DNA of 64,000 nucleotides from Moniliella sp. 'wahieum'. Taxonomy: Eukaryota. The translations under genes were made by a program, and so were the position numbers. Positions 1,834 to 60,700 of this stretch are shown here, in pieces. The DNA is taken from the NCBI GenBank assembly GCA_003971905.1, contig RSEE01000066.1, positions 186,001 to 250,000 on the forward strand. Reading direction: 5' to 3'. The notes under the pieces were generated by a model. It saw only the letters and a program-made list of their open reading frames with translations. It was not told the origin of the DNA and did no database searches. The stretch's first letter is position 1. Every line of letters starts with the position of its first letter.

Positions 1834-2386
1834 GCCAGCACGACGGAGGAGGTGGGGGGGAGGAGGGGGGGAAAGGAGAAGAGGAGGACGAAAAGGGGGG
1901 AGGAGAGGAGGACGAAAAAGGAGGGGAAAACAGAGGATAGGGCGACGTGCTGGCCAGTTTCTGCCCCAGGCTTCGGGCTGCGGTGTGTGTGAACATGCAA
2001 TGTGCTTTGAAGTTGAGAATGGCTTGCGATCCGCGCAGAGGAATCTGAAGCTCTGAATCCGAGGCCGTCTGGGAAAAGTTCAGCCGAGGAGCGGCTGCTC
2101 CGCCTGAGCGACAGGCTCATCGACCCATCCGCCTCTTCGACACGCTCGTTGCCATCACCGGCCTCTGCGCTGCACCCAGGCCGGAGGGGCGAGGACGAGA
2201 GCGTGCGCGTGACTCGCGAAGGGGCTGGTCACCGTGACGAACTCAGTACCGATACTGACTAGGGGGTGCCTAAGTAGTGACACCTATCCAGGCTGTGTTC
2301 TGCTCTCCTCCCTTGTCCCCCAAGGCCTAAGGCTTAGGCCTAACCTCTTGCAGCGTCTGCACCAGGGCGGCCTGCCTGCCCTCGCC

Positions 2387-8745: not shown

Positions 8746-10002
8746 GGTACGCGGGGCAGGAATGGGGGTAGAGGGGACGGTGGGGACGGTGGTGGCGGGA
8801 GGGCTGACAGCGGCCCAGGGAGAAGATGGCTGCGGGGGGGCTGGCTGCTTACGCGAGCGGCGCGGGGTTAGCGCTTAGCGCAGGTGTCGTATCGCAAACA
8901 CACACCTCGTGCCGGCGCAACAACGCGTACGGGGTTAGGCCGATGGTCGGTGATCGATTCTCGGTGATCGATTGCCGCTCTGTCTCCAAGATCGATGCGA
9001 GCGGTTAGTCATCGATCATCGCATCCCTCCGTATCCGCGTCCCACCGCTGGGAGCGCAGCCCCACAAAAGCCCCACCAGACACTGGCTGGTGCCCGGGGG
9101 GTTCCCCGCAGTCTACGTCACGGCTGTCACCGGTCACCCATCCCTCCCGCCATTCGCCTCGATGCAATCGGAGTAAAGCGTAACGTAACCTGACGTAACC
9201 GCGTACCCCGACCTAGTAATCCCGTGGATACGAACATGAGCGTGGCAGACAATCTGTGAGCGATGAAAGTTCAAGTTGGACGCTGAGCAACCCCCATCTC
9301 CAATCATTAATCAGACTCTTTTCAGTACGGTTCCCCCAGCTCTCAACCATATAAAAAACTGGTTGGCAGTCTTGGTCTTTAGAGTGCTCGCATATGGTCC
9401 TGGACGGGGGACAGACGGCTATTGAGAGCGTTCGTATGGTGGTAGCCTCCTCGTCACATTCCGCGTGCTCTCCACTAGTCGAAACCAGCTCCTTTTTTGT
9501 CCGGAGGCGTCGCACAGCTCTCAGCAGCCACGCCCACTGTATGGCCAATTCACCTCCCACTCGTTTGCCAGCACAGGAGAGGGTCATTGGTCATTGTTTT
9601 GGTCGGCCCGACGCAGGTGCATCGAATAGCCAATCTGGGACAACAGGGGACTACTCTTGTACCCAATGAGCCGCGGTGGGTTGTGGATAGAAGCAGGAGA
9701 CAAAAAAAGGTATGCATCAAGGGCCCATGAGAATAGAGAGCGAGAACAAAGAGCAACAGCAATATGCGGAACAAAGTACAAAGGAGAGAAGGGGGACGTG
9801 AGGCGGGCAGCTGGACAAGCCGCGGTACGCTAGAACGACAGAACAAAAGGCAAGGAGAGTGCAAGTTGGCCGCCAGGTCCACCCGATCCGGTCCCTAAGC
9901 CCCAGAGGGGGCGGCGTAGAAGGAAGGAGATGGGTGCAATGGAAGAAAAGACAAACGACAGAGACCGGGCCGTGATGAGAAGCAAGATGGGGTGGGCTCG
10001 AC

Positions 10003-14490: not shown

Positions 14491-16127
14491 GATGGATCGG
14501 ACAACGACGGCGATGGGGGACGGCGGTTGGGGTCCACAGTCAGCGCGCCGACGCCCTCGAACTGGTCCGCATGGAGTAGGGTGTGGTGTGTGGAAGCGGT
14601 GGTGGCGGGGAGAGGACATGCACGCGGCTTCTACGGCGGCAACTGCAGCAGCAGCGTGCAAAGCTGGGTGCCCACGAGCAGGATCAGCAGCGTGGGTGCA
14701 CGGACCGTCACGCGTCACGCGTGCTTCTGTCCCCATCCTGCTTGGAATATATAGGCCTGGCCCTGCGCATCCCGGGGATCCTGGGACTGCCCCCGTTGCG
14801 GACGAGGGCAGCCAGCAGGGGGGCAGTGCCTGGCCTGGGCCGCAGGGCAGACACTGAGCTGATGCGTGCTGATGCGCTCCCCGGTGTCGGGTGCGGCGGC
14901 GCAGGCCAAGGGGGTGCTGTGCTGAGTCTGGGCACTCAGCGCCGGCGCGGAGGCAGTGTGTGCTGCGGCTGAGCGCTATACGCTGAGCGATCTGGGTCGC
15001 CAAAGAGGACTCGGGGGAAGGCGCGGCCCAGCCAGCACCGCGCAGCACTCCACCCGAGCCCGAGGGCCAGACAGGCGCCAGGCGGCAGGCGTGGATGCGC
15101 AGGCGACGTCACGTGTGTCGGATGGGCGCGGGGGCATATGAGGCAGAGGATCGATGGGGCGACGATAGTACGGAGGTGCGTGGCTGCGCTGCCACTACGT
15201 CCGACAGGCTGTGATAGACAGGCCCGACAGAGTCAAGACCTATGCCCCCGTCGTAGATCGTACGGCTACGGCCACACGTTGCCGAGATCATTTGTCGCGA
15301 TCAGAGCGTTAGCAAGCTGGGCTCTCTTCCATTGCATATTCCATCGGCACATCGGCCACATACTATTTCTGTTTTCATGCCTCTCGTTACCAATCCATCC
15401 ATCAGATGGCCACGCAGTGCTCTTCATCCATGTGCATCAACCAATCGAATCATTGCACGCACCGAACCGCCCGAGAAGCTTGAGCTGCTGCATGGCAAGC
15501 CGCCGTTGCAGTCGCACTTGGAAAAGGGCTATAACGCGAACGCTTGATTATAACCGGAATAACCCTGTTTTTAGTTCGTTCACCTGTGGGGTGTGGGTGG
15601 ATGGCCAGGTGCGAGTGTGTGCACACTGCCCCCATCTATCTGCTGCGTTCTACGCGTTAAGGGTGCTGTGGGGATTCGCTGTTATGGTATAGTGCAGTGG
15701 TGGTTCGATCATCCGTATTCGTGATATCTGTGTTGTGCGCCGGCGCATAGGTTCGCTTCCAGATACCTCCCGAGAAATACCCTCCCAGTCCTCCCGAGCA
15801 CACATCAGGCTGGGCCGATACGATATGAGTAGCCGTTTCGCTGCTCTTCGGACACTATATTCGGTTGAACTGCCGCTGCTGTTTGTGGATTGCTTTGTCG
15901 CAGCCGTCCGTTCTGATTGGATCAAGTCGATCGATCGATCAAGGCCATAGCACAGGTCTGTGGGCGAAGGGGCGTGGAGACCCCCCCTACCGGTAGAGAG
16001 CAGGAGAGAAAGGATGAAGTAAGGATTTGACAGCGGCCAAACATCAAAATGGGAGGGGCACTGGCTCATTCTGAACCTGGATGCAACAGCATTTGCCAGG
16101 CTACCATCCACCATACTCTTCGAGGGC

Positions 16128-25213: not shown

Positions 25214-25453
25214 GGTGGTGGTGGTGAAGACAAAACAGAGGTAGATAGCGGGAACAACAGAGCAGGCCGCCCGCGCTCGCTCCGTCCGCAGGAATCCAGT
25301 CCACGCTCCCAGCTCGGCTGTGGTAGAAAGACAGCCAACGTCCACATTACGTTACCAGTCCCCCCGATTTGCACACCACGCATCATGCATCCCACATCAC
25401 GCATGGTGCACGGTCTCTGAGCTGTCACGTGTGATGTGGGGAATGTGAGCAGG

Positions 25454-25484
25454 TGACATGTGACATGTGACATGTGACATGTGA
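25454..25484. repeat. Heptamer tandem repeat (TGACATG)4-TGA in the divergent Rid1-like/RPL29 intergenic region
   Basis: Read directly from the sequence; the longest perfect example of the TNA-palindrome-TNA pattern. Confidence 0.95.
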
Positions 25485-27266: not shown

Positions 27267-27678
27267 GGTGGCGAGAATGAGGATGAGGTGGTTGGGGAGT
27301 GGCGGCGAGGGAGGCTGGAAGAAAGGCCAAGTGCACACCCGGCGGCCAGTGCCCAGTTCCCAGCGGTTCTGTCGTCATCGACACCAATCATCGGTCGACG
27401 CGTCCTCCTGGCGGCGGGGGCGCGGGCAGTAGGCCAGTCGCCTGTGACTCGACGCAATCGATGCATGACTCGACGTCATCGAAAGCAGACGAAGCGGAGC
27501 GGATTGAACTTTGAAATTGAATGGTGTGTGCGGTGCCAGTTCGCGAACACGCATTCCGCCCATGCCCTCCGACGGCCATTCCGCCCCGGAATGAGCAGGG
27601 GCGGCGGGCTGGACAGCCATCGTTATACACAGCGCTTTGCTGCTCCCCGTCTCTTCCTCGGCAGACACTGACACACGC

Positions 27679-35619: not shown

Positions 35620-37170
35620 TCACATGTGAGTGACATGTGACACGTCTATATTCCAACGCCGCCGCCTCTTCCTCCATTCGCGGTGGCGCGCTATATACGC
35701 CCGGGGACGTACCAATTATCATCTTTCCCTCTGCCGCACAGATTTGGCAGTGCCATTCCACTTCGACAGGACTTGGATATATATATGCCGAAGACGCGAC
35801 TACCATCGCAATTCTCATTTGTGAGCCCATTTCTGTCAGCAGTAGCAGGAAGCAGGGTATGTGTGGCTGCGAGATGCTCGTTGAGCGACACTGAACGTTG
35901 AACGTTGAATGTTGAAGAACGTACGTTGAACACGTTTAACGTTGAGTGCATTGACTTCTTTTGAGCTTAAGCAGCCGCGGAAATTGCCATTTAACGTGTT
36001 TAACGTTTAACGCGCTACACGATCGGCTTCTATCAGGCGACGTTGCGCAAGCGAGATACTGTCATTTGTGGATGCATTCTCACAGAAGCTGTGAGAATGG
36101 AACGAGTAATGCTATTAGTGATGAGCCGCTTTTAGCTGAAGCGACTCTACATCGCTCAGCGTTGACGCTCACCTCCGAGCTCTCAGCGATACTCCTGAGT
36201 AGTGCTCGAGCCCTCACGCGTCACGTACTGAGGACTGAGGCTCAGTACGTTCAACGTTCAGTCCTCAGGACGAGACAACAACTATACCGTCGCGAGTCGC
36301 ATGCCACATGTCACATACATGTCACGCCGAGCTTCTTGTATTCCTTCGCACATATCTCTCAGAGCGGCTGCTGTGCGTTGGCCACAGGTATTCGGCTAGG
36401 TTTACTTATTACTTTTGCATGCACATGCTTGCAGCTAATAGATGTTTCATCCCGTCAATGAGGTCGATGATCGATGCGGCCTGAGGCCATGCATGGAAGC
36501 GGTTGTGTTTGCGCCTGATGCGTGTGCAAAGGCAAGTGTGTGTGGACGGAAATAATACAACGACAACAGTGTTGCTTTATCGAACTTCTTTGGTTGACGT
36601 CTTATTGGTGGCATACTATTGTTAGTACCCCCGCATCGTCATGCATGCATCATGATCCAGGGGGAAGAATGGCTCTTGAGCAGCTTGAGTGGGCGTCCCT
36701 GTCGTATTTGGAGTACTTGTCGTATTTCGCTTGTTCTTCCAGCACAGACGAAGCAGTCCTCCTGTTCCTCCCGTTGGCGTTCAACGTTCAAAGTGTTCAA
36801 CACGTTTCACAAGCTTCAAACGAATTAAGCGCTGTAGTTGAATTCTTAGTGACCTAGTGACCGAGCCTAGCCTGCTCGGCCTAGCCTGGCCTTGCCTGAG
36901 GACCGGGCTACTTACCGGTTACAGGTTACCGGTTACTAGATACTGGTTACCGGTTACCAACAACGCTGTATACGTACACTCTGTTTGGATCTAAGACCTC
37001 TGATCTCACCATGTCACACCTCACACTCGTTTGCCAATGGCCAAAGCACATGTGCCTGGGTGCAACTAGGGGCGCTGTCGAGCTTCAAGCTTCAAGGTAG
37101 TGTCACCATGTCACCCATTCGCGCTAAGCTTAGCGCTTAATCGAAATCATTAATCAGCCTAAGGCCTAAC
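35620..37170. repeat. Cluster of short palindromic heptamer-period repeats with differing cores
   Basis: TGAACGT x2-3 (35892), TTAACGTTTA (36000), TCAACGTTCA (36251, 36781), TTACCGG array (36912-36958), AGCTTCA x2 (37081), TCATTAATCA and TAAGGCCTAA (~37147-37169). Confidence 0.85.
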
Positions 37171-37774
37171 CGACAAGGCTGGCCCAGCACAACCACCATG
37201 GCGTGAGGCGTTGCCGGCGGTGCACTGTTCCATGTTAGGGTTTTGCACACCACTCTCACTCTCCCAGCCTGCACCCTGGCTGAGCACCGAGTCTCAGATC
37301 GCAGCATTCGCTACGTATGCAGGCACCCACTTCTCGGATTGTGAGTATGTGAGTGCATGTGAGTACCGACTACCGAATGAATACATGGTGGCTGTGTATG
37401 AATGAGATCGACGGTGGCCCACCAGGACCCTGCGGCCTGGAGAGCGACTGCAAAAGCGGTGACACCGCAGGACAAAGGACTATGTGATACATCGCACATA
37501 GGTGGTGGCGCTGGTGGCACACGCGAACCCATGGAGCGTCTAAGCAGATTATTAGCAGAACATAGCATTGTAATGGGTTGCTGGTGTCCTCCTCAAACTC
37601 TGGTGCGCGAGGCACCATCACGTCAATCACGAAGATAAGTAAACGTTCGGGGTAGTAAAGTTCGGGGGAGGCATCCCTGAGAAGCCACAGGCGGGGGGCC
37701 CATCCGCATCGATTATTTCGCCAGCTCTTTGAGTTCGGGGAGGGTCTTGGTCATACCCGCCTTGTCCCCCAAAG

Positions 37775-39366
37775 CTACCGGTGAAGATTCGGGGTCGAGG
37801 AGGCAGCAAGTGCATCGTTGGGGTTGGTCGCTCTCCGCTGCGCGGCATAGCGAGTGAGCCTGGCAGACAAGTGGGAGACGCAGGTATTGATGCTGGTCGA
37901 CGCCCGGGAGCTTGATCGGTCAAGCAGTAAAAGGCCATGGCTCAAGACGCGGTTGGCCAATGAGGGGGTCTGGGTCATAGAACTGCTCGGCCGGGTGGGT
38001 ACTTGGCTAGGGTCGACCCAATAGCCCGAAGTGACCACCGAAATCGCGTCGGCCGACAGCGCCGTGTGCCACATAACTGCCACAAGAGGCAGAGCAAGCG
38101 CCCATGCAGCGTGCATATCAAACGTCCGATACAGCGGCGGTCGGTCCACCGCCCAGTCGAGGCTAGTGCCCGCGAGAACCAGGAGCAATGCAACTCGCAG
38201 CCGATGCATGATCGCCCGTCTTCCCCCAGAGGCAGTAACACCACTACTCGCCACTTCATCAACGTCGTCTTGAAAAAGAACGCCACCCATTACCATGGTG
38301 TGGATCCCGACCACCAATGAGGCCACAGCGTCAGGAAGAACCAGACCCCCAGGCGGCGGGGAAGAGCACCTTGTTGACAGAGACGAAAAAGGGGGCACGC
38401 AGTAAAGTGCAAACCATACCGAATGCCTCAATACCCAGCACGGTATACACAACCTTAGTCCCAAGCTTGAAGCGCTGGAAGCTCTGAAGAATAGTAGCAG
38501 GGTGACGGGAGAGGTGGGAACTCTTGCCAGGTGGGCTCCACCGAGCCAGGCGAGCCAAGCCCTGGAACAATGTCGCAACCAGGGCGACGTGCAGCCCAGC
38601 TGCCATTGCAAGATCACTGCGCGGCGTATGGCGAACACTCCCAATCACAGCCCCAAACCCTGCAATCACCCAAGCGAAGGGTGGTGTGTAGGTTTAGCGA
38701 GCGGGAAGGTGCCGGGCAGAGCGGGAGGTGAAGGAGTGTTGGCGCTGGGACGGAAACGCAGTAGGGCAATGATATGGACGATAAGGGTGAGTGTCATCCC
38801 CAGTGCTGCGAGGGGCTCCTCCATGCCACCCTCGGACAAAGACCCAATGACCATTGTACTTGACCATCTCCTTCAATATGGGCGGCATGGCATCCAGGGC
38901 GGTCTTGGCCCTCGCATTCGCTTCGGCCGAGATGGCGGGGAGACTAGCATTGGGCAAGGCGGCCTGAGCTTGGAGCAGGGCATTTTGGCGAATGGCCTGA
39001 GTACGTTGGATGGCATCGTTAGTGAGGGTGTGGGTGCAGCGATAGGCGGTGTCCGCAAGACAGTCCACCGCGTCCAGCGGCTCCACGGTTGGTTACGAAG
39101 CCAGCCACCGTCACCACGGCCCGTGATACCGTCATCCACGCCATCAGGGCCGCAGACGTCGTCATAGCGGATTGGATGCAGAGGCTGAACTCGGTCGTGT
39201 CGGCGCCATTGCTGGCAAAGGAATGGTGGTCGACGGAGGCGGCTTCCGAGATGGTGTAGAGTGTCGGTGGTGGCGGGCCCAAGGGTTGGGTAGCAGCGAC
39301 AGTGGTCATCATGTTCATGGCCAATGTGGCCACGGTGACGAAAAACAATGGGCAGCGCCGACGCAT
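37775..39366 (-). CDS. Divergent PER1/PGAP3 (CREST superfamily) membrane protein, frameshifted
   Basis: Signal peptide; ASNGADTTEFSLC (~SSGD...F..C); CLADTAYRCTH (~C..DCKY.CMH); MVKYNGHWVFVRG/GMEEPLA (~QYHGKWPF.R..GMQEP); SLDWAVDRPPLYRTFDMHAAW (~LELFDFPP...DAHSLWH). Confidence 0.7.
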
Positions 39367-40399
39367 GACACCAATAGCTGTAAGAGAGGGGTGGGTGTTG
39401 TTGGTGGGAGAGGGGGAAGGCGTCGATGCTGGGGGGCAAGCTTTTTGTGTGAGTTCGAAGCTCGCTTGGATGGAGGCGCGCAATATAAAGCTGGCGAGGG
39501 CTGGGCGTTTGCTTGCGCCTATCATTAACTTGAAGCTAAAGGCAGGCGAAGGCAGCAGGAGGTGATCGTCACACGTCACACACCACACATACATGTGCAT
39601 GAGCGCTGAGTCTCAGTACTGAGTAGTACGTAGTTGCGCAGTGCACCAGACCAGCGCCAGCCGCCAGCCCTGTACTTACAAGCCAGTCAAGTACATAGCA
39701 TTGATTGGGACTTCGCGCACAGAAGACAGCCAAAGCTGAAGCGCTGAAGGTGCTGAAGCTTGAAGTTCTATAGTGCAGAAAATGTCGCAAGCCTCATTAT
39801 GGCCTGAGGCCTGAGGCCCGTGAGGGCCTGAGGCTTGAGAGCTTGAGGCCTGGGCCTGACGTCTTTCGGGTGTGGGAACATGTGAATATTGACTATTGAA
39901 TCGCCGACAAGAACCGAGCACTCGCGGACTGAATACTGAGTGACTCTAGTAAGGCTAGTGAGGCTAGTGGCTGCCTTGTTCGGTCGCAAACACACCCCCG
40001 ACGGCACACACTCAGACAGGATTTCACCGTTTAAGACATTTAACGTTTAAGTTTTAAGACGCTACGCGTTCGTAGCTTGAAGCTTTTCTCCATATGCTGC
40101 GCCCAAGATGCATTATTCGTCTTCCTCTTCTTTTCCTTACTCTTCTGACTCTCTGCCGTCAGGCACAGTAAACGTTCCAACATCAGGCTAAGGCATGTCC
40201 ACGGCTGTCCAAAACTCTTTGCACGCAGCGCACGTGTGCGCGAGATACCATCTTCTTTCGAGTCACAGAAGAGTTCCCCAACAAAAGACGTAGTGCGTAC
40301 AACGAAACATTGGCCTTCAAACTTCATGGCTTGCCAAAGACGGCCATCGCTTGGCCAGTGCTCTCGGGGGTGTAACATGTAACCTTTGATCCTCCATAA

Positions 40400-44072: not shown

Positions 44073-44972
44073 AACTAGGCAGCCATGTTTGTTGACCAGG
44101 GTCTATGGGCCAGCCACCTCCGCGGCACTTCTGACCATTTACTCATTACTCCCGGGCACCACACCAGTATCCCTATCCCTGGCCTAGTGCCGCTCTCCTT
44201 TCTTCCCCTTCTTCTCCTTCTTCTTCTGATCCTCAGTCTGGGTTCAACCCAGCTCTGTCTTCTCTCTGCCATTGCATACTGCACTTAGGACGTCGCTGGA
44301 TCACCAGGATCATTATCGTTGTATCGGCTATTGGCCTTCTGAGTCACCGTAGCCACAGACGCAGATTCACAGTTCCACCGTCGGATTTATGTATGGTGCT
44401 GAGGTGGGTGGGCTGGGCTGCACGTGCCATTAGGCCAGAACTTGAGAACGTCATCTGTGGTTCATATATAGGGGGATGAACGTTGAACCAATCTTAGCTC
44501 CATACCAATGCCCACGCATATAATGCAGAGCAACCTTCAACCACACCAAAACAAAGACCCTCTTGTTCATATCCATAACCCGCATTAAAACGTTTGCCAT
44601 TCCCCTTCTCGACACGATCTTCAACGTTCATGTCTCCCTCGCTACTGGCATATTGCACACTGATGATCGATCAGTATAATGCCTCAGCGCTAGATGCACC
44701 CAACACACACGACCGAGATGAGCGACTGACGTTTGTTGGGTGCATCCCATCGCACTTCTTGAACTGCTAGGCTGTATTGCCTGCAACGAACAACATACAA
44801 CACATCGCTGGCTCCACCAACTGTGGTGTGGCCCCCGAGGACCGGAATGCCGACTTGCTTGCATCTGCAATGGCATTGAATTGAGTTGACGTGAATTGCT
44901 TGACATGAATCGGTGCATTACGTACGCATCCTTCCTGCCCATTTACCCCGGCCCGCACCACCAGGCCGAGGC

Positions 44973-46302: not shown

Positions 46303-46655
46303 AGCGGTGGTGGGGGGGGGGCCGGACAGCGGCTTTCCACGTTCTATGCCGACGGGCAAAACGTGGGATCCCAACTTCTGACTCGAGGCCCGGCGGCACA
46401 GGTTCCTTATTAAATGGCCATTCCTAATTCCGCCTTGTGCCGGATACGGCGTCAAGCTGCAAGTACTCCGCTATTTGCTCAGCACGCGTGCTGGACTGAA
46501 CGTTCAAGTTGAACACGCTGTCGTGACGCGTGAACGCGTGAACGTTGAACGTGACGTCGAACGGCAATGCGCCTGGGAAAGATGAACGGCTGAGCAAGCA
46601 TTCACGAGCGTCCTCGCTCGCCCCCGCCGCCATCATCACCACCACCACCACCACA

Positions 46656-48298
46656 ATGCCAGGGGACACCGCGGACGCACGCCCAAACTGGTTACTGCAT
46701 CAGTTGGTGCAGTCGTACGACGAACCGCCGCCACACCACGTCACCCCCCGCCCCCCACCTCCTGGCTGCCCTCGCTCGCCGGCCTGTCGAACTGCATCAT
46801 CGGCACGCCCGACGCGGCACCTCCCGCTACCCGCCCGATGCGCCCTTTGTCCGCACCGGTTTCCGGAACCCCTGGCCCAGCTGGCACAAACCGACTCCCT
46901 TCCAATTTGGAACGGGCTAGAATGGGGACCGTCGTCCTCCTGCCGCCCCTCCGCCTCCAGCTCGCCCAACTTTTGTGATCCATCGGATCCGCCTTCTCCC
47001 CCTTCCCCAGCTGCCGAGACGGAGGCTGACCAGGAGTTGGATGTGGCTACGGTGCCCCTGGCAGACTGGCCTGCCACTCTTCCCCGCAACAAGGTACGAG
47101 CGACGTGGATCGGGCATGCCAGCACGCTCGTGGAGTTCCGCTGTACCACGGCGATGTGATCCGGGTCCTGTTTGACCCCTTTTTCCGATCGGTACGTTTA
47201 CGCCTTTCTATCCCGTTTGACCATGGACCCACCCTAACAACACCGCTTTGTTCTCCAGTGCTCTCCGACGCAATCGTTTGGTCCGCTGCGCTCCTTGCCG
47301 ACGCCAATAGAGATTGAGAGTTTGCCGCCGATTCATTTTGTCCTCATCTCGCACTCGCACTACGACCACCTCGACTGGTCCTCCATCAAGCGCCTCGCTC
47401 AACGTAACCCGTCTCTCGTTGTGGTCGTCCCGCTCGGCCTCGAGTGCTGGTTCTACGCCACGCACCAACGGCCGATCCCAGAAGGCAACGTGTACGAGTG
47501 CGACTGGTGACAAGGTGATAGTTAGCATCCCCACGCTCCCTGCCACGCAACTCACATTTACCTGCACCCCGGCCCAGCACGGCTCGGGCCGAATGGGGTT
47601 GGATACGAGCACGAGCCTCTGGCCAGCTGGTACGTCACCTACCGCCGCATGCCTACCCCCACCTGCCACGGAGCTGTGTTTCGTACCTTTTTTGTGGTGA
47701 TACGGCTTCCAATTCCACGATCCCGCCACGCGCGCCCGAAACTTCGCCCACGACGACCGACGCAGAAAGAGAGGACGAAGCCTTGCCCTTGCTCGATAAG
47801 GAGCCCTACCCGATCTGCCCGGCCTTTGACGAAATTGCCTCACGCCTCGGCGCGCCCGACCTGAGCTTACTGCCGATCAGCGTGGGTGCGACCTTAAGTT
47901 TCCTCAAGGGATTTTGACCCGTTCCCTGTTGGCTACTCGCCCTCCCGTGTGCTTGAACGAGGGTCTGACAGCGGAACCACATGACGCCAAGGGATGCCGT
48001 GCGCTGTTTCCGTCTGATGGACCGCGCCGGGTCCTGGTCGGACGAAGGCAGGCATATCCGAGCGCGCGCTCGAGTTCAAGTTGCTAAACCGGCGCCCGTG
48101 GCGGTCGCGATTCATTGGGTACGTTTGTCGGTGCGGAGGACGAGGCGAGGGGATCGGTACGACAGCTTCGTGAGGCGTGTGGTGAGTTGGGATCGAATTT
48201 GCTCGCTCCTATCGCCCTACCGACCGTTCGACCTTTGTCGCGCTCAACCCTGGCGAGTCGGTGCTTCTCCCCTTGCGACCCTGGTCCCGGGACTATGA
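46656..48298 (+). CDS. NAPE-PLD/Fmp30-like metallo-beta-lactamase-fold hydrolase (3' end approximate)
   Basis: ATWIGHAS, FDP, VLISHSHYDHLD, VPLGL..WF, TPAQHGSGR, FCGDTG, CPAFDEI, PDLSLLPI, HMTPRDAV and AIHWGTF. Confidence 0.88.
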
Positions 48299-49617: not shown

Positions 49618-51337
49618 CTTCTTTTCCTCACTAGTTCCCCCGGGCTGTGCCTTCCCACAGAAGAAGAGCAACAACGGTATCTACCTACCCCGCAACGGTC
49701 TCCGCGTGGGTGTGCGAGCGAGCACCTCGTAGAAGAATAGCCGTCCAGAACCGCAGAAGTCTCAGAAAGACTAGCGTTCAGCCTGGGCGGAGTTTAAGCG
49801 CTGAGAGCATATATGCCAGCTATTCCTCTATATACGAAACCAACACGCGGGCCAAAGTAAATGGTGGCAACCGGATCGAATGCCAAAACCTATATACTAA
49901 TAGGCCAACAATCCCGTCCAATCATTAGTCCGTATCTATAACCTCACATGACACATGAACAACAAGTTGTTCCAGAAATGTTCTGGTTCGTTCTCTATAA
50001 TATCAGTACGATAGTCACCATGATATGCTTATAGTGTTCAACGTTAAACGTTTAACCTCCCATTGCTCGTTTATTGAGTGTAATGTTTATAGAATCGACA
50101 TCTGCCGTTAACTGGTATAATATGGTAGAGTATAGTCCGTGTTCAGACGGTGAGTATGGATGCGCACTCACTAGCACCTTTTCGGATGTCTGTCCGAAAG
50201 ACGCATCAGTGATGCTCAACTTTTTAATGTGCTAGTATACTATACGACACACCCCTTCCCGGGCCAGCACCACGCCCTGACGAAGGGGCCGGGGGTGATG
50301 ATACTATCACTGCCGGGGGGGCTTCTGTTGTTGACTGCCAGTATGTTGCTAATGAGCCTATCGATACCGGCACCGCGTACTACTGCTTTTGAGAAACCCA
50401 ACAATCCATGTTGATGACTTGTTTATGTGGAACTTCTCCGTATTCTATAGGACACAGCGCGGAACAAAAACTATATTTATCCCTCTGGCCTTAGGCTTAG
50501 TCCTTATTTTCAGTATATCGGGGCATTGTTGGTCAACTGTTGTTTGAGAATCTCTCCCTCCCTCTCCACAGTACTCATCCGTCAGTATAAGAACTGCCCA
50601 AGGGAGAAGATAACAGATCGGTGGGAAATACTTCGCAAGCTGTCTTGCTTCTCCACGCTCTGCGGTGACACAAGGTTTCGGTTACGGGATCGTTTTTACG
50701 GTGGAGAGGCGGTCGTCTATGAAGAAAAGGGGGGGTCGGAGAGATCTTGACTGTATATAGGTGTGCGTGACATGAGATCCTCGAACGCGCATGATCTCTT
50801 CCGCTTGCTGTTGATTAGATAGATAGGGCACGTGCCGGTTGATGAAGTGATATTATACACAGATTGTTAATATGAGACGAAGAGATATCCATAGAGATCA
50901 GTAGGAGATCACAGCAAAGGATTATATGGGTCGTATTTCACTTTTGCTTGATGTGTGTGCAGGGGGAGAAAAGAGGGCTAATTGCTAACACCGTATGCAA
51001 TCAAGAAAAGATAGAATGAAGAACAGAGGCATGTGTGTGGAAATACTGATGAAAGAGGGGAGAGATACAGAAGCGAGGTGCAGACAACATGTGCGCGCCA
51101 ACAGCGAGAAGAGCGACCAAGAGATCTGCCATTACTTTGACCGAATCGAGTGTTTCAACAACCAACAGACCCACCCGGACAACAGATGGGATTCTGATTC
51201 GACGCACCCCCCGGTCTCTCCTATTCCATCACCGTGCTAATCGGGGTACCATATAGATTGTACAATTCCAGTGGAAACAGAGCACAGAGAGTGATTCGGA
51301 TCTCTCCCCTGAGTGAGAGAAAAGAAAACCTACCATA

Positions 51338-51515
51338 GTCAGGGCTAAGGCGAGGAAGGTCAGAGTCGAGAGACTAGGTCAAGGGATGTAGCAATCGTTC
51401 GTGGGAAGAAGCAAGAATAGAGTACATGGTGCGAAGTGGAAGAAACAGGGAAGAAGCGAAACGTACGTGCTGACGAAGAAATTGGAAATGGGAGCGAGAC
51501 CAGCCAACTATGACA
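51338..51515 (-). repeat. Dispersed repeat copy B (inverted homologue of 41977-42130)
   Basis: See copy A. Both copies translate to KKLEMGAR(S/P)AN on opposite strands. Confidence 0.85.
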
Positions 51516-52908: not shown

Positions 52909-54301
52909 TGTTGACTGTGATCCTCTGGCTCCCAGTCGGTAGACCAGGTTCGCCTCGGTTCCATCGGCTTCCCGCTGACGTCCCTGCGTGTCACTGTCCC
53001 TGTGCCCTGCACTCTCTCCTGTGTGACTCACTGTCCCTGTGCCTAGTCCAGCCTCCTATATAGATGCCTCTGTACCCAGACCCAACTCTGGCTCCAATCC
53101 ATCACCTTCTCCTCCTCCTTCTGCCGTCCGGCTCCCTAGGCCAACGAGTTACAATCTGATCCCCCCGGAAGGGAGCGCTCTTCAAGCAAGCCCACCCCCA
53201 AGCCTACAAGCCCAAGCTAAGCCGCCAAGCCCACAAGACACACCCGTCCTCCCGCCCAACAACACCACCGCCACAATCGGCACCTTACCGCCACAATCGG
53301 CATACTACCGCCACAATCGGCATACTACCGCCACAATCGGCACACTCGTCCCCCACAGATGGGCAATGATTTTTAGGACAACACACTACGGAACAAAACG
53401 TGTCGGGTATCGTCAACGAGACGAAATTCCTCCAACGACAAAACGGCGCAGGCGAATCGCAGAAAGCGGGGGTGGCTGCTCATCAAGTGCCCACCCACGG
53501 CTACACGCCCCGGATTGCCAATTCATCCGGGGCACCTGGGGAAAGGATGGGGGGGGTGGTCACCCAACTTCTTCCACTCCTCTTTTTCAACAACAAAGAG
53601 AACCCAAACAGATCAAGACGGTTGACGCATAGCGCCCGTTCATTTCCCATCCCATGCCCAATGGACCCCCACTGCACAGGCATGCGGAACCAACAACTAC
53701 CCAACGCATCCAATTTTGATGCCAAACGACCTTGGACCGCATTTACTCCAAGTTTCCAATTTTCTTTCACTACACCTATAACTGGTGCTTTTTACTTTTG
53801 CCCACCAAATCGCTTCGGGGCGCAACCCCTACTACTTTTACTTCTAAACTTCTACAAGCATCTGGCGGTCGCACAATACACCAACCACAAGCGCTCGGCT
53901 CGTTCAGGTGTCATCCTGGACAGCGGGGTGTAGGCCAGTCGTGTGGCCATGCACAACTCCAGGCCATTCGTCCCGGTTGCCACTCAAGTCCTCCCCTCTC
54001 TACATCCACTGGCAGGAGCTCATCCCACAACCGATGTCTCCGGGTTCCCTGGCCAGCGGGGGTGTTGACTGTGATCCTCTGGCTCCCAGTCGGTAGACCA
54101 GTTCGCCTCGGTTCCATCGGCTTCCACGCTGACGTCCCTGCGTGTCACTGTCCCTGTGCCCTGCACTCTCTCCTGTGTGACTCACTGTCCCTGTGCCTAG
54201 TCCAGCCTCCTATATAGATGCCTCTGTACCCAGACCCAACTCTGGCTCCAATCCATCACCTTCTCCTCATCCTTCTGCCCGTCCGGCTCCCTAGGCCAAC
54301 A
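52909..54301 (+). mobile_element. Short non-autonomous or internally deleted Ty1/Copia-type LTR element
   Basis: Near-identical ~238-bp direct repeats at 52909-53145 and 54063-54301, starting TGTTG; the 3' copy ends CAACA. Internal TATA (CCTATATAG) and a G-rich PPT-like tract (CAGCGGGGG) before the 3' LTR. About 0.9 kb of interior with no intact pol. Confidence 0.85.
53267..53346 (+). repeat. 20-bp tandem repeat x4 inside the LTR element
   Basis: ACCGCCACAATCGGCA(TACT/CCTT/CACT) repeated four times. Confidence 0.95.
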
Positions 54302-54439
54302 CAAACCACTTTGGACTCTCTTCAAGCCTCAGCTTCAGCGCAAGCGCCGGTAGCAGTAGTAAAACGCGTCCATTACAACGCGTAATATTATACGCGTTTT
54401 GTATACGCGGTACGCATCATATTGATCAAGCTCCAAAGT

Positions 54440-55090
54440 TAGATGACGCTGATGATCGATGATCGAGTATCAGCCGCATCAGAACCTGCGTATATTGGCT
54501 CGTGTTGCGTACCTGAATTGGCGACAGGTAAAACACATATTTTGGCATGTGGATACCATGGCATGGATGAATTCGATGACGGATCTCACTCAGATCTTCA
54601 GATCTACTACTACTATATCCAGCTGTAGTATCATTGCTCAGACCAGAGTACGTCGGTGCGCTCCGCGGACAGAAGAGCGCAACAAGCGACTGTCACGCGT
54701 CACGTTTCGTTAGTCACTAGTGAATGAGACTAGTGCTAGTGACTAGTGACTAGGACATTTTCACAGATCGCAATCACACGATGCACTGATGTTCGATGCA
54801 TCGGCTTCTTTCCACTGTCAAACAATAATCAGGCACTAGGGGACAGTCCCCAAGTATCCAATATCCCTTGCAAGTATCCAACTTTCCATCATGCATCATG
54901 CATCATGCACATGCACCATGCATCATCGATCATCGATCATCCTTCAAGCATGACGCATGCCGTCTCTCTCATTATTAAATGGCAAAAGCTTCTACAGAAC
55001 CACTGTGCCGTGACTAGTGACTGCTCTAACCCTCTGCCTCTCTCAAATTCCCAGAAGTACTCAGTCTGAGGATCTGAGTACTCTCAGGGT
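54440..55090. repeat. Cluster of short palindromic heptamer-period repeats with differing cores
   Basis: TGATCGATGATCGA (~54452), TCACGCGTCA (~54693), CTAGTGA x2-3 (54736), TCATGCA x3 (54889), TCATCGA x2 (54923), TGACTAGTGA (55011). Confidence 0.85.
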
Positions 55091-57728
55091 GCTATTACTA
55101 CTCACCAGTGGCTCAAGTGTAATGTCACCTACTATGTCCTTGGACTGTCTCGCTACGACTTTGGAAGCGGATCCGGATCAGCCACTCGGGTTTGGGCGTG
55201 CAGCTCGGTGAATTGTTTGCACGTTGGGGAACAAGAAGGGCTGTTTATGTTGGGGGCTGTGACCACAGCAAAAAAGCCTCACATGTGAGCTGGTGGCTCG
55301 TGCTTTGTGGCCAATGCCCCTTCAGTTCCTCCTCAGGCCCAGGAGTTCCGTTGTTTTCTCTCTCCTGTTTCCTTTGTTCCGCGGTTAGCCCCTGACGGCA
55401 ACTCGCTGCTTGAGTTCATCTGTAGGCATTGCTGGTTACCACACCACCACCACCTGGCACCAGTGCGATTGCACCACCCTCGAGGACCATCAGGACTCTA
55501 TCTATAAAAATGGAGCTAGATCGAGACTGTGGGTGTGAGGCACACGTGATCGGGGCTCTCGGCTGCCGCGTAGCAAAATTAAAGGCTCACAGTAGTGTGA
55601 GCCAATGAGAGCAAGGCAATACTACTAGCGTTTCGCTTGTCAGATTGGCGATTGATGGCCGAGCGGATGGAGGTTATGCATTATGATCAATGGCCAGTGC
55701 ACCGCTTCAACGTACAATGTGTTGAACTGAAGGAATACTAGTATGCAGTCGGAGGGGGTAAACTTGCTCTCTCGTGCCGTCCACGCCACCGACAGAATAT
55801 GTTTTTTCAAGGTATAAGTAGTATCGGATCAATTTATACGAGAGAGGACATCACATTCCTCCACCTTTTGTCCTCCAACCTCTGGAGACGGCCTAACCTG
55901 AAAAGGCTCATGCACTCATGAAAGAATGGGGTGTGGCACTACCGGGACTGGGATGCAGTGGCGAGAGATCGGCTGGAGAAGACGCCAATGAAACCAAGGT
56001 GTTGGACGGATGACTGATTTCTTGTGACGGTGGCGTGGGCAGCGGTGCCGGGGCTATATAGCCATACATACACACATTAAAAGGAATTTGGAGAGAGAGA
56101 AGTACGCGACTTGGAGGCCCGGCGGGGAGTTCTTTACTGGCGTCTTCCCTCTTGTTCGGCCTGACCAAATAAGGTCAGTAAAACATAGTGATTTTGGCGT
56201 TACACCTACCCATATTCATCCCTCATTCCACTCTATCCCCCCGCTCAGCTACACGAATTGCTGTGGCTGATGGGCCGTGAGCAGTGCTCCTTTTCGTTGT
56301 TAGTATGAGATGGGAAGGGAAACACTTCAGATGATCGTCCAGCCGGTGTGGCAAAACAATAACATTGAGATTTTGATGGGGGGTTTTTTGACGATGACTC
56401 GATGACTGCATTGTGGAGAAGCTAGCGAACCCCACCGGATCAGAGAGCTGCGGTGGTTGCAGGACGGGGTGGGTTGGAAGGCAGCGTTTGAAGGAGGAAC
56501 CGGAACCGGCATTGGAATCGCCATGATCGCTTTTCATGCAACCCACGCCGGGAGAACGGAGAGTTGCGTACAGGTTGGCGCGACCTGATTGACGCGAAGT
56601 CTGTATTAATCCCGCATCAGTTGGACAGCTTGTTGGGTTTGTTTGAAATTTGACGCAGCACCACAGAGTGGTGCCGGAGGCTCTGGGGGGGTCAGGCATA
56701 CGTTGGATGCATCAGTGTAGGCGCTCTGTCTGTAGGACCGTTCCCGGTCGGGTGCGGGAGATGGCAGCGAGCACCAGGCTCTATAGTAGGGGTGTCGGAA
56801 CGATTAATAAATGGGGATTCTTGATCGGCTTTTGTTCGGATGATGTGGGGGCTGCGGTCGGAAGGGAGAGAGGGTGGCTGCTGTAGAGCAGGTGTATAGG
56901 GGAGCGACATCCAATTCTGTTTGATGTGTGAAAAGGGTGGAGTGGGAAGACGGATATATGGCGTGCGTTTCGGTTTTCACAGCAGAAGCTTGCGTGGGGG
57001 CCGGTGGGGAGCTGCGAAGAGGCAGATCAGTAACCGACACACGTTAATTGTTAGACCAAGCTTCATGAGCATGACGTGCATGATGCATGATGCATGACGC
57101 GTCTTCAGCTTCATGGGTGATGCCTGCGGACTTGGGCGGGTTGATAAAACGTTGAACGCTGACAATGAAACGAAGCCCCTGGCGCGCTGGGTGAGGCCGG
57201 TGAGCCTTGAAGCTTGAGGAGGGCAGGACAGACAGAGAGAGAGAGGATGTCGATGAGGACTGCCAGTGGTCCAACTGTCCACCACCCCAGCTGGAGGCCA
57301 GACCTAGCAGAGGGGCTGCGGCAAGGGCGTGGGGCAGCGTGTGCGGTTTGCAGGGGGGGGCTGCACGCGGGTGGATGTCGGCTGATGGTTGATGGGCGCG
57401 TGGCAGTGGGATTGCATCGCCTTGTTGCGGTGCCTTCGCCGATCCGCATCCTATTGGACCCAACCCACGCTGCGCACGCGACAAAATCCACACACACATC
57501 CGTCGGCCGTCAAGGATACGTGGTTGGGACACAGCCACTCGCATGATCCAACCCCCCCTCTACATCAACTCCCACTCATCCGCCTCTCCAGCCCTGTTCC
57601 CGTTGGTCTCCTGCCTACTTTTCCTTATTGCCGCCGTCACCACCAGCACCGCCGGCTGCATCCTGCGTCCCAACGTCTCTCTTTGGTGCACCCACCCATC
57701 CCCACACACGCGTCTCTGCCGTGCGGAT

Positions 57729-60700
57729 ATGGAGATGGCCCTTCCACCCCCTTCCCCAGCCTCGACGCCTCTGTGTTCGACGCCTCCGTGTTCGTCCCCG
57801 CCTCGTCTGGACGTGGACGCCCAGCCCATTGTCAGCGAGGCAGCGGCGTGTCGCACTGAGCTCGAGCAATACCGCATCACCCTCAATGCACAACTCCAGG
57901 CTGCAAAGCAATTTACCAGCGCCCTCGACCGCCACCACAGCACCACCCAGGCATGGCTTGACACTCTCGCTCACGCTCTTCAACAACTCCACCTGGCTCA
58001 GCTTACCCAGTACGACATCGAGCGCACAAAGCATTGGTCTGGTTTTGTAACTCCCCTAACGCCTGTTGCAGTCACCAGTGACAAGCCCACACCGTTTTGG
58101 AACACAGCAGCCCACGCCCACGGCGTGAAAACCAGCATCTACCAGCTGCGCTCTCAGATCAATTCGGCTCAGACACGTTTCGCCCAAGAACATCAGCAAC
58201 ACCTAGATCATCTCGTGCGCCTTGTCTCCCAAGGGCCCCCTTCCCTCTCAACACGCTCTGCTGTGCCTCTCGCCACTCCGACTGGGAAAGGCATTGACCG
58301 TTCACTATCGCCCTCCAAGGCTTCGTTGCACCAGCGGGACCAAACGCAAGCCGCCCGTCGAGTTCGCAACGAAAAGGTGCCCTGGGAAAAGCCGAGCCAT
58401 GAATCGGAGCCGATCGATCTGGACGCAGTGTTTGCGAGAAACATGCAAGAAAAATTATTAGCTGAGCTACGGCGACTACAAGCTGACAATGCTTCCCTCA
58501 CCGCCTCCCTTTCGTTGATACGGACAGAGCGCGAAGAGACTCTAACCCGAATCGAATCGGCGCTGCTAGCCAAGCAAGCCCAGCGCGATACGCTTGTTAC
58601 TAAGTTGCACGACAAAAGCGAGGGTTACCTGGCCCAACTCAATGCTGCCCAGCATGCCAAAGGTACGTCTTTTTCTCGCCTTTTGCTAGGCATCCACGCC
58701 CCAAATTTTCGTATTAAAAGTTGAAAGCGACTGAGATCTGATCATCGATTCCTATTCGCTAGATATGATGTCCACCGAGCTATACGATCTACACCTAGCC
58801 CATGAAGTGGCGCAAGAGGAACTGTCTGATCTACGGATTAAGTTGTTTCAGGCGGAAGCTTCGGCTGCGCAACTGCAAGCCAGGTCGATCGCTGCCGGCA
58901 AAGCAAATGATGAGATGCTTGCCAAGCACGCTGAGGAAATCGATGGCTTTCGCATGCAGCTGGTTCTCGTCGAGGAGAAACGGAACGAGGCCCAGCAGGA
59001 AGCACTTCACGCTCATCATCGCATTCAATCTATTACAGAGGAGCGGGATAGGGCGCAACGTGCCCTGTCGGAGGCGCAAGACCAAACTAGTTTCCCCTCT
59101 ATCTCTTTGGCAACGGACCAAGAGATAGAGGATCTGGAAGATGAGTCGCAAATTGGCGCTAGGCCTCGGGCCTGGAGCCGAGGTACGACAAATTCCGATT
59201 GGGTGACAGAACCTTCTGCTTCGCCATTGTCATACCACCCCGTCCTGCCCATGGCCACCACCCCCTCCAAGTCTCTGTTGGCACCAGATCCGCATCTCAA
59301 CGACGACGACCGCTCAGCCTCCCTTCCTGTCGATCCTTCCATCCATTCGCCTGAGCCACAGGAAGTGCTTTCTTCGTCTCTTAGCCCCCCCTTTTGCAGA
59401 GGAAGCGTCCCCGCTACAACGCAGGCACCGGCAGAAGGGAACGAGGAACGAGGGGTCACGACCACCATGTCTTTGAACTCCATTACCGACTCTCTCGCCG
59501 TCCACCTCAAATCCATTGCAGAACGTCACGAGGCTTCGCTACGCTTGTTGCTAGATACCAACACGGGTCAGCTTCAACAGCAGAGTACCCTCTCAGGGAT
59601 GGGACCCAACCAAGCTCAGTCACTTGAACCTGAACCTGTGCCTGTTGCTTCTATCGGTCATCCAATTCCACCAAGCCCGCCCACTGGCTCCGCTCCGTCT
59701 ACGTCTTCTATCAGTTATCCGTTGAGCAACATCACCGCCTCCAATGAATCCGCGGTCAGGTCTTTGGATAAGGGTATGCCCGTCGGCCTACAGCCCAAGA
59801 ACGTACAAGCCCCGTCAACCCTGGCAGCTGCCGTATTGTCAAGACATGCATGGATCGGACGGAGATGCAGATAGGTTCCAAGATGCTCGCGAAAGTCTAT
59901 TAGGCGTATCGGAGCTTGATCTTGGACATTCTCTCTTGCGCCCCTCGTCCAATCCTATGCTAAATCGGGCCGCTTTCCCCACTGATGACAGCCATGTCCA
60001 CTCCCATGAGGTTCATTCGACACTATGGTGGAGATCGAGAGGGGCACTGTCCCTAATGAACGAGGCGACAAGGCGCTTCAAACAAACCTGGATCTCCAGC
60101 ATTTCCTCTTCCCTTCGGATTTGAACAAACATGGCGATGTGGTTGAAGAAGGTGGTCGCCACCCCTCGGCTCCTGCAATTGTTGAGCCGTCATCTTTATG
60201 GAATGAGGCCACTTTCCACCCGTCTGATGAGGGACTACCGATGCGCAACGAAGGGGGCGCACCTTTGACTCAACGCTCTCTCGACCCGCTTCGGTCTAGG
60301 ACCGATTTGGAGACGCTGCCGTTGCCTCAGTCTGGACAACTCTCCAGGATCGAGGGTATACATACGAGTTACTCCGCGCTGGATTCGACCTACCTACAAC
60401 CCCAGCTCCGTCGATTCCCGTCTCCAACGCAGGTATACCCCCACCACCTCTCCTCAGTCTCGTCTGTCTGCCCATGCGGATAGTTCATCCAGCATGGGCC
60501 CCTACGCCCGCCCTCTAGCATTTGCAAGAGCGCCCCAACCACTGTCAGTTTCCACTCGGCTGAGGGATGAGAACAGGGATGACGGGGTAAAGGCCATGCG
60601 GGAATGGACCCCAGCTTCTTCTCATGCACCCCCTCCTGCCAGTTACCATTGCGAATGCGAGACAGGGCCCATTCGGGTTCTGCAAACCCGGCCGTCGACG

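Follow-up and report, generated by a model that had tools for sequence, protein, structure and literature searches.

T-N-A-centred heptamer motifs in the non-coding DNA of a Moniliella sp. contig: candidate excision footprints of a flank-hairpin transposon

Introduction

The non-coding DNA of a 64-kb stretch of contig RSEE01000066.1 from Moniliella sp. 'wahieum' (positions 186,001 to 250,000; hereafter the window, numbered from its first letter) carries many short motifs of one geometry, in which T-N-A trinucleotides (TNA, N being any base) alternate with four-base palindromic cores (xyy'x') at a period of seven bases. This window, with a G+C content of 57%, is the only sequence under study. 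What is duplicated in the motifs is a 7-bp site centred on TNA, the bases at the junctions between copies are complementary to the adjoining flank, the cores derive from that flank, and one and the same target can bear several different junctions. We favour, with moderate confidence, the reading in which a cut-and-paste DNA transposon, or a small related set, left the motifs behind as excision footprints; it would have made 7-bp TNA-centred target duplications and left its sites through hairpins formed on the flanking DNA. In this paper, we present the counts that establish the pattern, describe the duplicated unit and the minimal element, set out the excision model together with the points that weigh against it and its alternatives, and compare the motifs with known transposon systems.

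The heptamer pattern and its controls

Expected counts were obtained from dinucleotide-preserving shuffles, and real-sequence controls were provided by 80 other eukaryotic metagenome contigs totalling 331,795 bp (332 kb). These contigs came from a metagenome scan with an HSP90 fragment (80 loci, best 74% identical) and served solely as composition controls. Ten-mers consisting of two T.A trinucleotides around a 4-bp palindrome occur 65 times in the window, compared with 8.49 +/- 3.05 in 200 shuffles (maximum 18). Those whose two trinucleotides share the same middle base (same-N) number 50 versus 2.4 +/- 1.55 (maximum 6), those with complementary middle bases 10 versus 2.35, and the remaining middle-base pairs account for 5. 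The arrays had been described earlier from the letters of this DNA alone (the sequence-only reading), and the motifs listed there are present at 25 out of 25 coordinates, the one at 39613 being a T-N-A/T-N'-A palindrome and not a direct repeat. That reading had counted 12 or more different cores; all 16 possible 4-bp palindromic cores are seen.

The excess is narrow in every dimension in which it was measured. At period 7 there are 28 perfect tandem runs of at least two units, whereas periods 8 and 9 have 4 and 5 such runs; among tandem duplications, which the sequence-only reading proposed as a comparison, period 7 stands out. Non-palindromic 7-bp duplications are also in excess (11 versus about 3). 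The repeat unit is an A-xyy'x'-T hexamer palindrome plus one base in 17 of the 28 period-7 runs. A....T hexamer palindromes are themselves over-represented (277 versus 175 under a first-order model), whereas the C..G, G..C and T..A classes are not, and palindromes in general show no enrichment in the window. A palindromic spacer between same-N TNAs is in excess at a length of four only (50 versus 2.4), lengths two and six being at expectation (9 versus 9.3 and 1 versus 0.8, respectively). When the 16 outer-letter classes of the trinucleotide are compared, T.A alone is enriched (50 versus 2.4), followed at a distance by G.G (10 versus 8.4) and G.T (9 versus 3.5). Same-N 10-mers show no excess in the control contigs: one set of 169,096 bp contains 13 (14.0 expected) and another of 162,699 bp contains 8 (13.8 expected).

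The heptamers thus form a real and highly specific pattern that belongs to this genome, although it is by argument only that an assembly artefact is excluded. The restriction to T.A and the single geometry shared by 16 cores fit a dedicated mutational process, as the sequence-only reading had proposed, better than they fit a transcription-factor site or plain slippage.

A 7-bp TNA-centred site is the unit of duplication

Complete 7-mers of the form nnTNAnn recur at an offset of exactly seven bases at 18 positions, compared with 0.13 expected from 60 shuffles. The same shuffles give 0.20, 0.18 and 0.13 for offsets of 8, 9 and 10 bp, where 6, 2 and 4 positions are observed, and no repeat occurs in the window at offsets of 11-12 bp; copies separated by junctions of 1-3 nt thus make up 12 positions versus about 0.5 expected. 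Identical TNAxy 5-mers lie 7 bp apart in 84 cases versus 5.5, and they are not notably repeated at 5 bp (4 versus 6.0) or 6 bp (11 versus 5.9). Since whole 7-mers recur and TNAxy lacks 5- and 6-bp repeats, a 3-bp or 5-bp duplication with filler is ruled out. A Transib-like 5-bp duplication followed by two P nucleotides was rejected for the same two findings, the missing period-5 repeats of TNAxy and the duplication of complete 7-mers.

Two further classes of duplication have the same centre. A 7-mer followed by one base, complementary to the adjacent end of the 7-mer, and then by the same 7-mer was found at seven loci, and T and A occupy positions 3 and 5 in six of the seven (AGTGACC, TGTCACC, TGTGAGT, GCTGAAG, CGTGAAC and GATGACT), where chance would give about 5%; complementarity of the base was the search criterion here, and the informative result is the six in seven that are TNA-centred. 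The non-palindromic perfect duplications of GGTCATT, ACTGAGG and CGTCACA are also TNA-centred in the phase of the run (4 positions versus 0.16 +/- 0.39). What is duplicated is therefore a site of 7 bp whose third base is T and whose fifth base is A. Among 14 7-mers read by hand, position 2 is G in 7 and position 6 is C in 7, and the symmetric target consensus is roughly nGTSACn.

The junctions vary around this constant unit. At 39735-39765 a single target carries three of them, namely C (one base, complementary to the end base of the target), GT (two bases) and CT, which replaces part of a copy and is the complement-reverse of AG; at 37340-37364 the junctions are A and GCA. Three complementary junctions of 3 nt were found. 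At 57070-57099 the target begins with CA and all junctions read TG, its complement-reverse, and one junction with an intact copy stands there beside replacement junctions. Compound arrays retain one middle base throughout while their second core consists of the flanking dinucleotide and its complement, as at 54922-54944, where the TCGA core of the array 54887-54944 is the right-flank dinucleotide TC followed by GA.

Anatomy of the minimal element

The period-7 excess peaks at matched lengths of 5 (87 versus 44) and 6 (36 versus 12), which correspond to runs of 12-13 nt, and periods 8, 10 and 11 are at shuffle level in the same analysis. The minimal element is TNAxy + y'x' + TNAxy, in other words a 5-bp direct repeat around the complement-reverse of its own last two bases. 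Counted on both strands, this 12-mer occurs 57 times versus 0.37 +/- 0.64 in 100 shuffles (maximum 3), and 4 times in the 331,795 bp of control contigs. When any 5-mer X5 is allowed in this arrangement (X5, complement-reverse, X5), 57 of the 78 12-mers found start with T.A.

The boundaries of the runs are informative as well. Among the 92 ends, 19 come directly after TNA, 26 follow TNAxy and 16 follow a complete core, whereas only 11 interrupt a TNA. Because the pattern does not resume beyond the boundary in 16 of the 26 ends after TNAxy, these are not the remains of decayed longer arrays, and CpG decay as the origin of the 12-mer boundaries was rejected on the ground that the sequence past the boundary bears no relation to the pattern. 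At 32 isolated loci read by hand, the half-core recurs in at least one flank in 24 (right 15, left 15, both 6, one only 18), where the chance of finding it is about 7% per side and about 12% for either side. Of the 50 same-N 10-mers, 40 have G or C as their middle base. As for decay, next to the 50 perfect copies there are 19 with the inner pair broken (8.4 expected) and 9 with the outer pair broken (7.6 expected).

A model of insertion, excision and repair

A direct duplication of fixed length at a symmetric target is the signature of transposon insertion, and excision hairpins opened off-centre betray themselves by junction bases that complement the adjoining flank, known as P nucleotides. 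Three features expected of footprints left by flank-hairpin excision are found in the window: a direct duplication of fixed length remains at the site, the junction bases are the complement-reverse of the adjoining flank, and one target can bear differing junctions, as independent events would leave them. From these we infer a transposon, hairpins on its flanks, a nuclease that opens them and a rule by which the ends are joined.

The element would insert with a 7-bp target-site duplication centred on T-N-A (nnTNAnn, roughly nGTSACn) and would excise by forming hairpins on the flanking DNA, in the manner of MULE, Transib/RAG and, with a 1-nt offset, hAT. For MULE, hAT, Transib and RAG, such flank hairpins are described as being opened by host nucleases, after which end joining leaves footprints (PMC5499845), and Ac/Ds footprints are described as copying the flanking DNA in palindromic form (PMC4561436). 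Each hairpin would be opened two nucleotides 3' of its tip by a host nuclease of the Pso2/Artemis type, which would convert xy into xy-y'x', with two P nucleotides. The yeast enzyme, Pso2, is described as cutting hairpins 3' of the apex, preferably at a distance of 2 nt, and its in vivo assay relied on transposon excision generating hairpin-capped breaks (PMC3299998).

Once both hairpins had been opened at +2, the left duplex would end at TNA and bear x-y-y'-x' as a 3' overhang, and the right one would start at TNA. End joining would then keep one overhang and discard the other, so that the P nucleotides would replace the first two bases of the second target copy, and the product would be r s TNA xy y'x' TNA xy or its mirror image, which is the modal element seen. 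The period would be exactly 7 because the total length stays 14, and any of the 16 cores would be possible, each matching one flank, because the palindrome would consist of the last two bases of the target and their P nucleotides. The half-core should accordingly be repeated in one flank, and in one only. Rarer openings would give perfect 7-bp duplications, or 7-mers with 1-3 junction bases between them. Every scar recreates TNA-centred targets, and therefore repeated visits could extend the arrays; such visits, probably together with ordinary replication slippage, would build arrays of up to 7-8 units, and the older ones would decay through substitutions and 1-2 nt indels (36912, 39801, 35892).

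Hairpin-opening repair and excision footprints were both among the candidates of the sequence-only reading, and both have a place in this model; the footprint anatomy that it proposed does not. It had taken the 3-bp TNA as the duplicated target, where complete TNA-centred 7-mers are repeated instead, and had read the palindrome as 2 bp of each transposon end, where the core corresponds to 2 bp of the flanking target copy and two complementary P nucleotides (24 of 32 flank matches; all 16 cores). Its further candidate, fold-back at TNA mini-hairpins, disagrees with a middle base that is directly repeated and not complemented (50 versus 10).

Points against the model

A number of observations weigh against the transposon model, beginning with its basis in one 64-kb window of assembled sequence. 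No transposon was found in this window. Exact terminal inverted repeats (TIRs) of 10-12 nt with any duplication of 2-10 bp gave one candidate, which is not above chance; a search of the window for TNA with TIRs of 7 nt gave 6 versus 8.2 in shuffles; and pairs of nnTNAnn were accompanied by TIRs or CA..TG ends at chance level only (CA..TG in 12 of 1994 pairs). A Pfam scan of 226 translations of open reading frames (ORFs), some of them overlapping, revealed no transposase domain, and the sole remnant resembling a mobile element is a Pif1 2B-domain fragment at 42648-43169, and this is no transposase of the cut-and-paste type. Sixty-four kilobases are too short a stretch to show that an element is lacking.

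The scars themselves raise further difficulties. Their density is unusually high, with 42 merged loci in 64 kb. The joining rule by which one overhang is kept and the other discarded had to be postulated. The replacement product expected from opening 1 nt from the tip was not seen, the two candidates in the window failing to fit, and two intact copies with two P nucleotides between them have no exact example in the window and a partial one only at 57070. The array at 25454 fits the model only if one flank base has changed, and the loci with complementary middle bases are poorly explained, 2 out of 10 being followed by xy. A flank match is missing from 8 of the 32 isolated 10-mers; chance alone would supply about 2.4 such 10-mers. 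Relative to the control contigs, the enrichment of the one-base-junction class is no more than about 6-fold (6 loci in 64 kb versus 5 loci in 332 kb). The scarcity of decayed copies could mean either recent activity or selection.

Alternative explanations

A host nuclease, for instance a domesticated transposase, or an undescribed break-repair process might cut nGTSACn with a 7-nt stagger and, through fill-in and hairpin-type processing, write the same products with no insertion at all. Neither a transposon nor a transposase was found in the window, and the density of scars and the repeated hits on the same 7-bp sites are extreme for ordinary transposition; both points favour such an activity. 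We nevertheless consider it unlikely, for we know of no repair route that yields a 7-bp direct duplication together with P-nucleotide palindromes in the absence of an insertion-excision cycle, and one of the points in its favour, the missing element, is blunted by the small size of the window.

Replication slippage alone might also produce heptamer micro- or minisatellites, with units capable of forming hairpins escaping repair and expanding, and no transposon would then be required. Slippage would leave arrays such as those seen, which reach 4.5 to about 8 units and in part have degenerated through substitutions and indels of 1-2 nt, the excess of non-palindromic 7-bp duplications agrees with it, and it almost certainly contributes to array growth under any model. 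As the whole explanation it appears improbable to us. The ability to form a hairpin does not predict the excess, which is lacking for C....G and G....C hexamers, for palindromic spacers of 2 and 6 nt and for palindromes generally; the enrichment is limited to T.A, and the unit is constrained to T.A plus a palindrome. The clean 12-13-mer, which is the commonest form, cannot come from a simple tandem duplication because that needs at least 14 nt. Slippage likewise fails to account for complete 7-mers separated at one locus by differing junctions of 1-3 nt, and for cores composed of the flanking dinucleotide and its complement.

We give similarly little credence to the view that the motifs are cis-regulatory elements, in which A-NNNN-T palindromes might act as dimeric transcription-factor sites, multiplied in promoters and kept by selection. 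It is true that the loci are intergenic and clumped and that few decayed copies exist. Several are within a few hundred bp of the start of an ORF, such as 57070, upstream of the ATG at 57543, while 39600 adjoins the ATG of ORF 39019-39600. The MluI cell-cycle box, the site of MBF, has an ACGCGT core, is found in the promoters of G1/S genes and is bound by an APSES factor. ACGCGT in combination with T-N-A matches the string of this box, ACGCGTNA, as does the sequence at 14706..14722, and five loci with CGCG cores (14708, 34055, 36214, 46524 and 54693) fit that string. The 12-bp palindrome CTCACATGTGAG, present twice, can be counted on the same side. Some of the loci may indeed have a regulatory role, and the structure-read cis element named as an alternative by the sequence-only reading may hold for them as well. 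A binding site, on the other hand, would not explain why 16 cores share one fixed geometry, why a middle base that is not contacted is repeated directly (50) and seldom complemented (10), or why the cores are predictable from the flank; there is no binding-site logic in non-palindromic TNA-centred duplications or in one-base complementary junctions, and C..G palindromes such as E-boxes are not enriched.

The footprint model of the sequence-only reading, in which PIF/Harbinger-like elements duplicate the 3-bp TNA and leave two bases of each inverted terminal repeat between the copies, can draw on T.A as the hallmark target of PIF/Harbinger with a free middle base in mPing, on the duplication and terminal-repeat stubs that mariner-type elements are described as leaving (both PMC4561436) and on the strict 3+4+3 geometry, but is very improbable in view of the duplicated 7-mers and non-palindromic junctions, the many families with different termini that 16 cores would need, each favouring targets that mimic its own ends, the precise excision described for mPing-type elements (PMC4561436) and the absence of any TNA-flanked TIR element within the window.

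Catalogue of loci and their genomic setting

The loci that were read individually are collected in Table 1. Merged, the scars form 42 loci: the first 31 kb hold 12 of them, the stretch from 31 to 58 kb holds 29, and a single one lies further on. This amounts to about 1 per 1.5 kb, with hotspots of roughly 1 kb and a maximum of about 14 loci in 1.6 kb. The motif loci fall outside recognised coding exons and are clumped into intergenic patches of roughly 1 kb.

Table 1. Individual motif loci in the window (positions counted from its first letter)
Positions	Sequence	Description
8868..9313	TTAGCGCTTAGCGC (8868); CGTAACC TGA CGTAACC (9184)	four clustered palindromic-junction loci (8868, 9009, 9127, 9304), with 9184 in addition
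9582..9596	GGTCATT GGTCATT	perfect 7-bp duplication, TCA at positions 3-5, no junction palindrome
14706..14722	CG TCACGCG TCACGCG T	two ACGCGT hexamers
25453..25484	(TGACATG)x4.5	longest perfect array, in the gap beside formin-like ORF 23745-24926 (-)
35892..35945		TGA-ACGT array with degenerate units (ATGT and others), then TTA-ACGT-TGA
35990..36012	TTTAACG TG TTTAACG TTTAACG	TNA-centred 7-mer three times, junctions of 2 nt and 0 nt
36214..36225	TCACG CG TCACG	minimal 12-mer with clean boundaries; 5-bp repeat and complement-reverse of its last two bases
36227..36240	ACTGAGG ACTGAGG	perfect TNA-centred 7-bp duplication, non-palindromic junction
36848..36862	AGTGACC T AGTGACC	7-bp duplication, junction base complementary to first target base
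36912..36958	TTACCGG / TTACAGG / TTACCGG / TTACTAG / ATACTGG / TTACCGG / TTACC	seven-unit degenerate array
37101..37115	TGTCACC A TGTCACC	7-bp duplication, one complementary junction base
37340..37364	TGTGAGT A TGTGAGT GCA TGTGAGT	three complete TNA-centred 7-mers, junctions of 1 nt and 3 nt
39567..39581	CGTCACA CGTCACA	perfect TNA-centred 7-bp duplication, non-palindromic junction
39735..39765	GCTGAAG C GCTGAAG GT GCTGAAG CT TGAAG	one target (GCTGAAG), three junctions
39754..39765	TGAAG CT TGAAG	minimal 12-mer
39801..39858	GGCC, GGCC, GGCCCG, GGGCC, GGCT, GAGCT, GGCC (cores)	degenerate GGCC-TGA array, cores of 4-6 nt
44477..44488	TGAAC GT TGAAC	minimal 12-mer
46522..46552	CGTGACG CG TGAAC G CGTGAAC GT TGAAC GT	compound array, cores CGCG then ACGT, all TNAs TGA
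54451..54466	GATGATC GATGATC GA	core TCGA
54590..54605	TCAGA TCT TCAGA TCT	period-8 variant, 3-nt complementary junction forming AGATCT
54736..54753	CTAG TGA CTAG TGA CTAG	CTAG core array
54887..54941		about 8 units: TCATGCA-type (5, two degenerate), then TCATCGA (2.7); all TNAs TCA
55674..55685	TTATG CA TTATG	minimal 12-mer
56393..56407	GATGACT C GATGACT	7-bp duplication, one complementary junction base
57070..57099	CATGACG TG CATGA TG CATGA TG CATGACG	worked example, four copies of CATGACG, outer copies complete
58732..58741	TGAGATCTGA	probable intron: 40-bp gap between ORFs 57543-58724 and 58765-59874

Gene fragments recognised by the Pfam scan are those of HSP90 (62513-63421, minus strand), Prp19 (27637-28455, plus strand), a formin-like GBD (23745-24926, minus strand) and a DUF2921 protein (16364-17128, minus strand). 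Among named sequences, the HSP90 fragment is most similar to those of Tilletiaria anomala (80% identity) and Malassezia species (74-81%), and one further protein is 91% identical to it; the Prp19 fragment matches fungi, with Tilletia indica as the top named match (46%). From these matches we take the source to be a fungus belonging to Ustilaginomycotina, with no close sequenced relative among the collections searched. Positions called promoter in this text are approximate because gene finding based on third-codon-position G+C (GC3) gave no usable gene map. The stretch 31000-58000 has a lower G+C content (47-58%) and is almost without recognisable protein domains, although 29 of the 42 scar loci are located there, and it may be a gene-poor, lineage-specific or formerly transposon-occupied region. 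The Pif1 2B-domain match mentioned above (42648-43169, plus strand, E 2e-11) lies in this stretch with no further helicase domains nearby, and could be what is left of a decayed Pif1-like or Helitron-type helicase gene. An exon-like ORF at 47238-47507 (plus strand) matches Lactamase_B_2 (E 1.5e-9) and so points to a gene of the metallo-beta-lactamase fold, without a DRMBL/beta-CASP match. Pso2/Artemis nucleases are described as members of the metallo-beta-lactamase superfamily (PMC2211804); we claim no link between this ORF and the opening of hairpins by Pso2/Artemis.

Other repeats and palindromes accompany the heptamers. Inverted copies of about 150 bp at 41985-42130 and 51335-51510 are 87-94% identical and 9.3 kb apart, each with a CACCATG start-like context, and may be duplicated 5' regions of paralogous genes as opposed to transposon ends. 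A direct duplication of about 240 bp (52909-53150 and 54063-54300, 99-100% identical, spacing 1154 bp) has the TATA-like CCTATATAGATG inside. Neither this pair nor the inverted one holds any motif loci by which the presence or absence of a scar could be compared between paralogous copies. At 53264-53343 there is a 20-bp tandem repeat (ACTACCGCCACAATCGGCAT-like) of about 4 copies, 85-88% identical and unrelated to the heptamer pattern. The palindrome CTCACATGTGAG is perfect and identical at 35619-35630 and 55278-55289, 19.7 kb apart, and could be a genuine protein-binding site. A perfect 16-bp palindrome, GCGCTAAGCTTAGCGC, lies at 37121-37136 within a dense scar cluster; the window contains 3 palindromes of this length versus 0.8 expected. 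At the left end of the window, 1-2000 shows a strong skew of G over C (+0.33), a G+C content of 65% and G-rich repeats of the GGGGA/GGGAG type.

Implications

If the transposon model is correct, the non-coding DNA of this fungus holds a dense fossil record of transposition, and documents with unusual clarity the cutting by one transposon family and the repair of the break by its host. A TNA-centred target of 7 bp, the opening of hairpins two bases from their tip and a length-preserving joining rule could then be read from the genome sequence alone. Excision scars would be a quantitatively important mutational input that founds minisatellites and writes palindromic hexamers into promoters. The motifs would also offer a direct handle for locating the responsible element genome-wide and for testing dependence on Pso2 and end joining in a fungus amenable to such work. 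Should there be no such transposon, the data would instead indicate a site-specific break-repair process that has not been described before.

We put forward a broader proposal only tentatively, and regard it as rather doubtful as a whole. This presumed member of Ustilaginomycotina might have, or might have had until recently, a transposon that forms hairpins, or else a domesticated transposase, whose 7-bp nGTSACn target is strict. Its visits to the same intergenic sites might be frequent enough for its P-nucleotide scars to be a major source of insertions at those sites, to seed heptamer minisatellites and to create, again and again, palindromic A-NNNN-T hexamers, which are potential dimeric transcription-factor sites (e.g., ACGCGT), in promoters.

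Comparison with known systems

A limited literature search found no published description of TNA-centred 7-bp scars or of heptamer arrays built from scars, and the motifs can be compared with several known systems that share part of their features. Nearest to them are the Ac/Ds (hAT) footprints and the hairpin joints of V(D)J recombination, Transib or MULE. PIF/Harbinger elements (Tourist, mPing) resemble them in a T-N-A target core with a free middle base. Their duplication is of 3 bp, however, and their excision is described as precise, by way of complementary 5' overhangs (PMC4561436), whereas seven base pairs are duplicated here and scars are the rule. A PIF/Harbinger origin was rejected on the seven duplicated bases and on TNA-TNA without a spacer, which is near expectation (54 versus 42.3). 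Galileo and its relatives of the P superfamily make 7-bp palindromic duplications with the consensus GTANTAC, and P elements excise with long 3' overhangs and not with hairpins. The likeness lies in a 7-bp duplication whose consensus is symmetric around a free central base; the centre is A-N-T in Galileo, whereas it is T-N-A here.

In Basidiomycota, transposons with 7-bp duplications are described as Kyakuja (KDZ) in Agaricomycotina and hAT7 in rusts (Pucciniales) (PMC12730594). The motifs share with them a 7-bp target duplication; the groups named in that source are Agaricomycotina and Pucciniales, and not Ustilaginomycotina (PMC12730594). No KDZ or hAT transposase domain was found among the scanned ORFs of the window, where CA..TG termini are at chance level. 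KDZ elements active in Cryptococcus are described with 8-bp duplications (bioRxiv 10.1101/2024.08.15.608186).

An 8-bp reading of the hAT type was rejected, since it fits only one of the six one-base-junction loci and the duplication seen is not that of hAT elements. The hAT duplication is an 8-bp nTnnnnAn, with T at position 2 and A at position 7, and a nick one base into the flank leads to transversions that turn terminal bases into their complements. Here T and A occupy positions 3 and 5 of a 7-bp duplication, and the palindromes are of even length. With Ac/Ds of the hAT family the motifs nevertheless share a retained target duplication, junction bases that are palindromic copies of the flank and, under the transposon model, a host opening of hairpins followed by end joining, as these steps are described for that system (PMC4561436, PMC5499845).

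V(D)J coding joints, Transib and MULE resemble the motifs in having two-nucleotide complementary additions beside an intact flank, with junctions of 0-3 nt. Transib and RAG duplicate 5 bp, and Muta1 duplicates 8-9 bp. The junctions described here differ in that they overwhelmingly keep the 14-nt total by replacement, which is not a described rule. They would share with these systems the opening of the hairpin 2 nt from its tip by Artemis or Pso2, the position described for Pso2 in yeast (PMC3299998).

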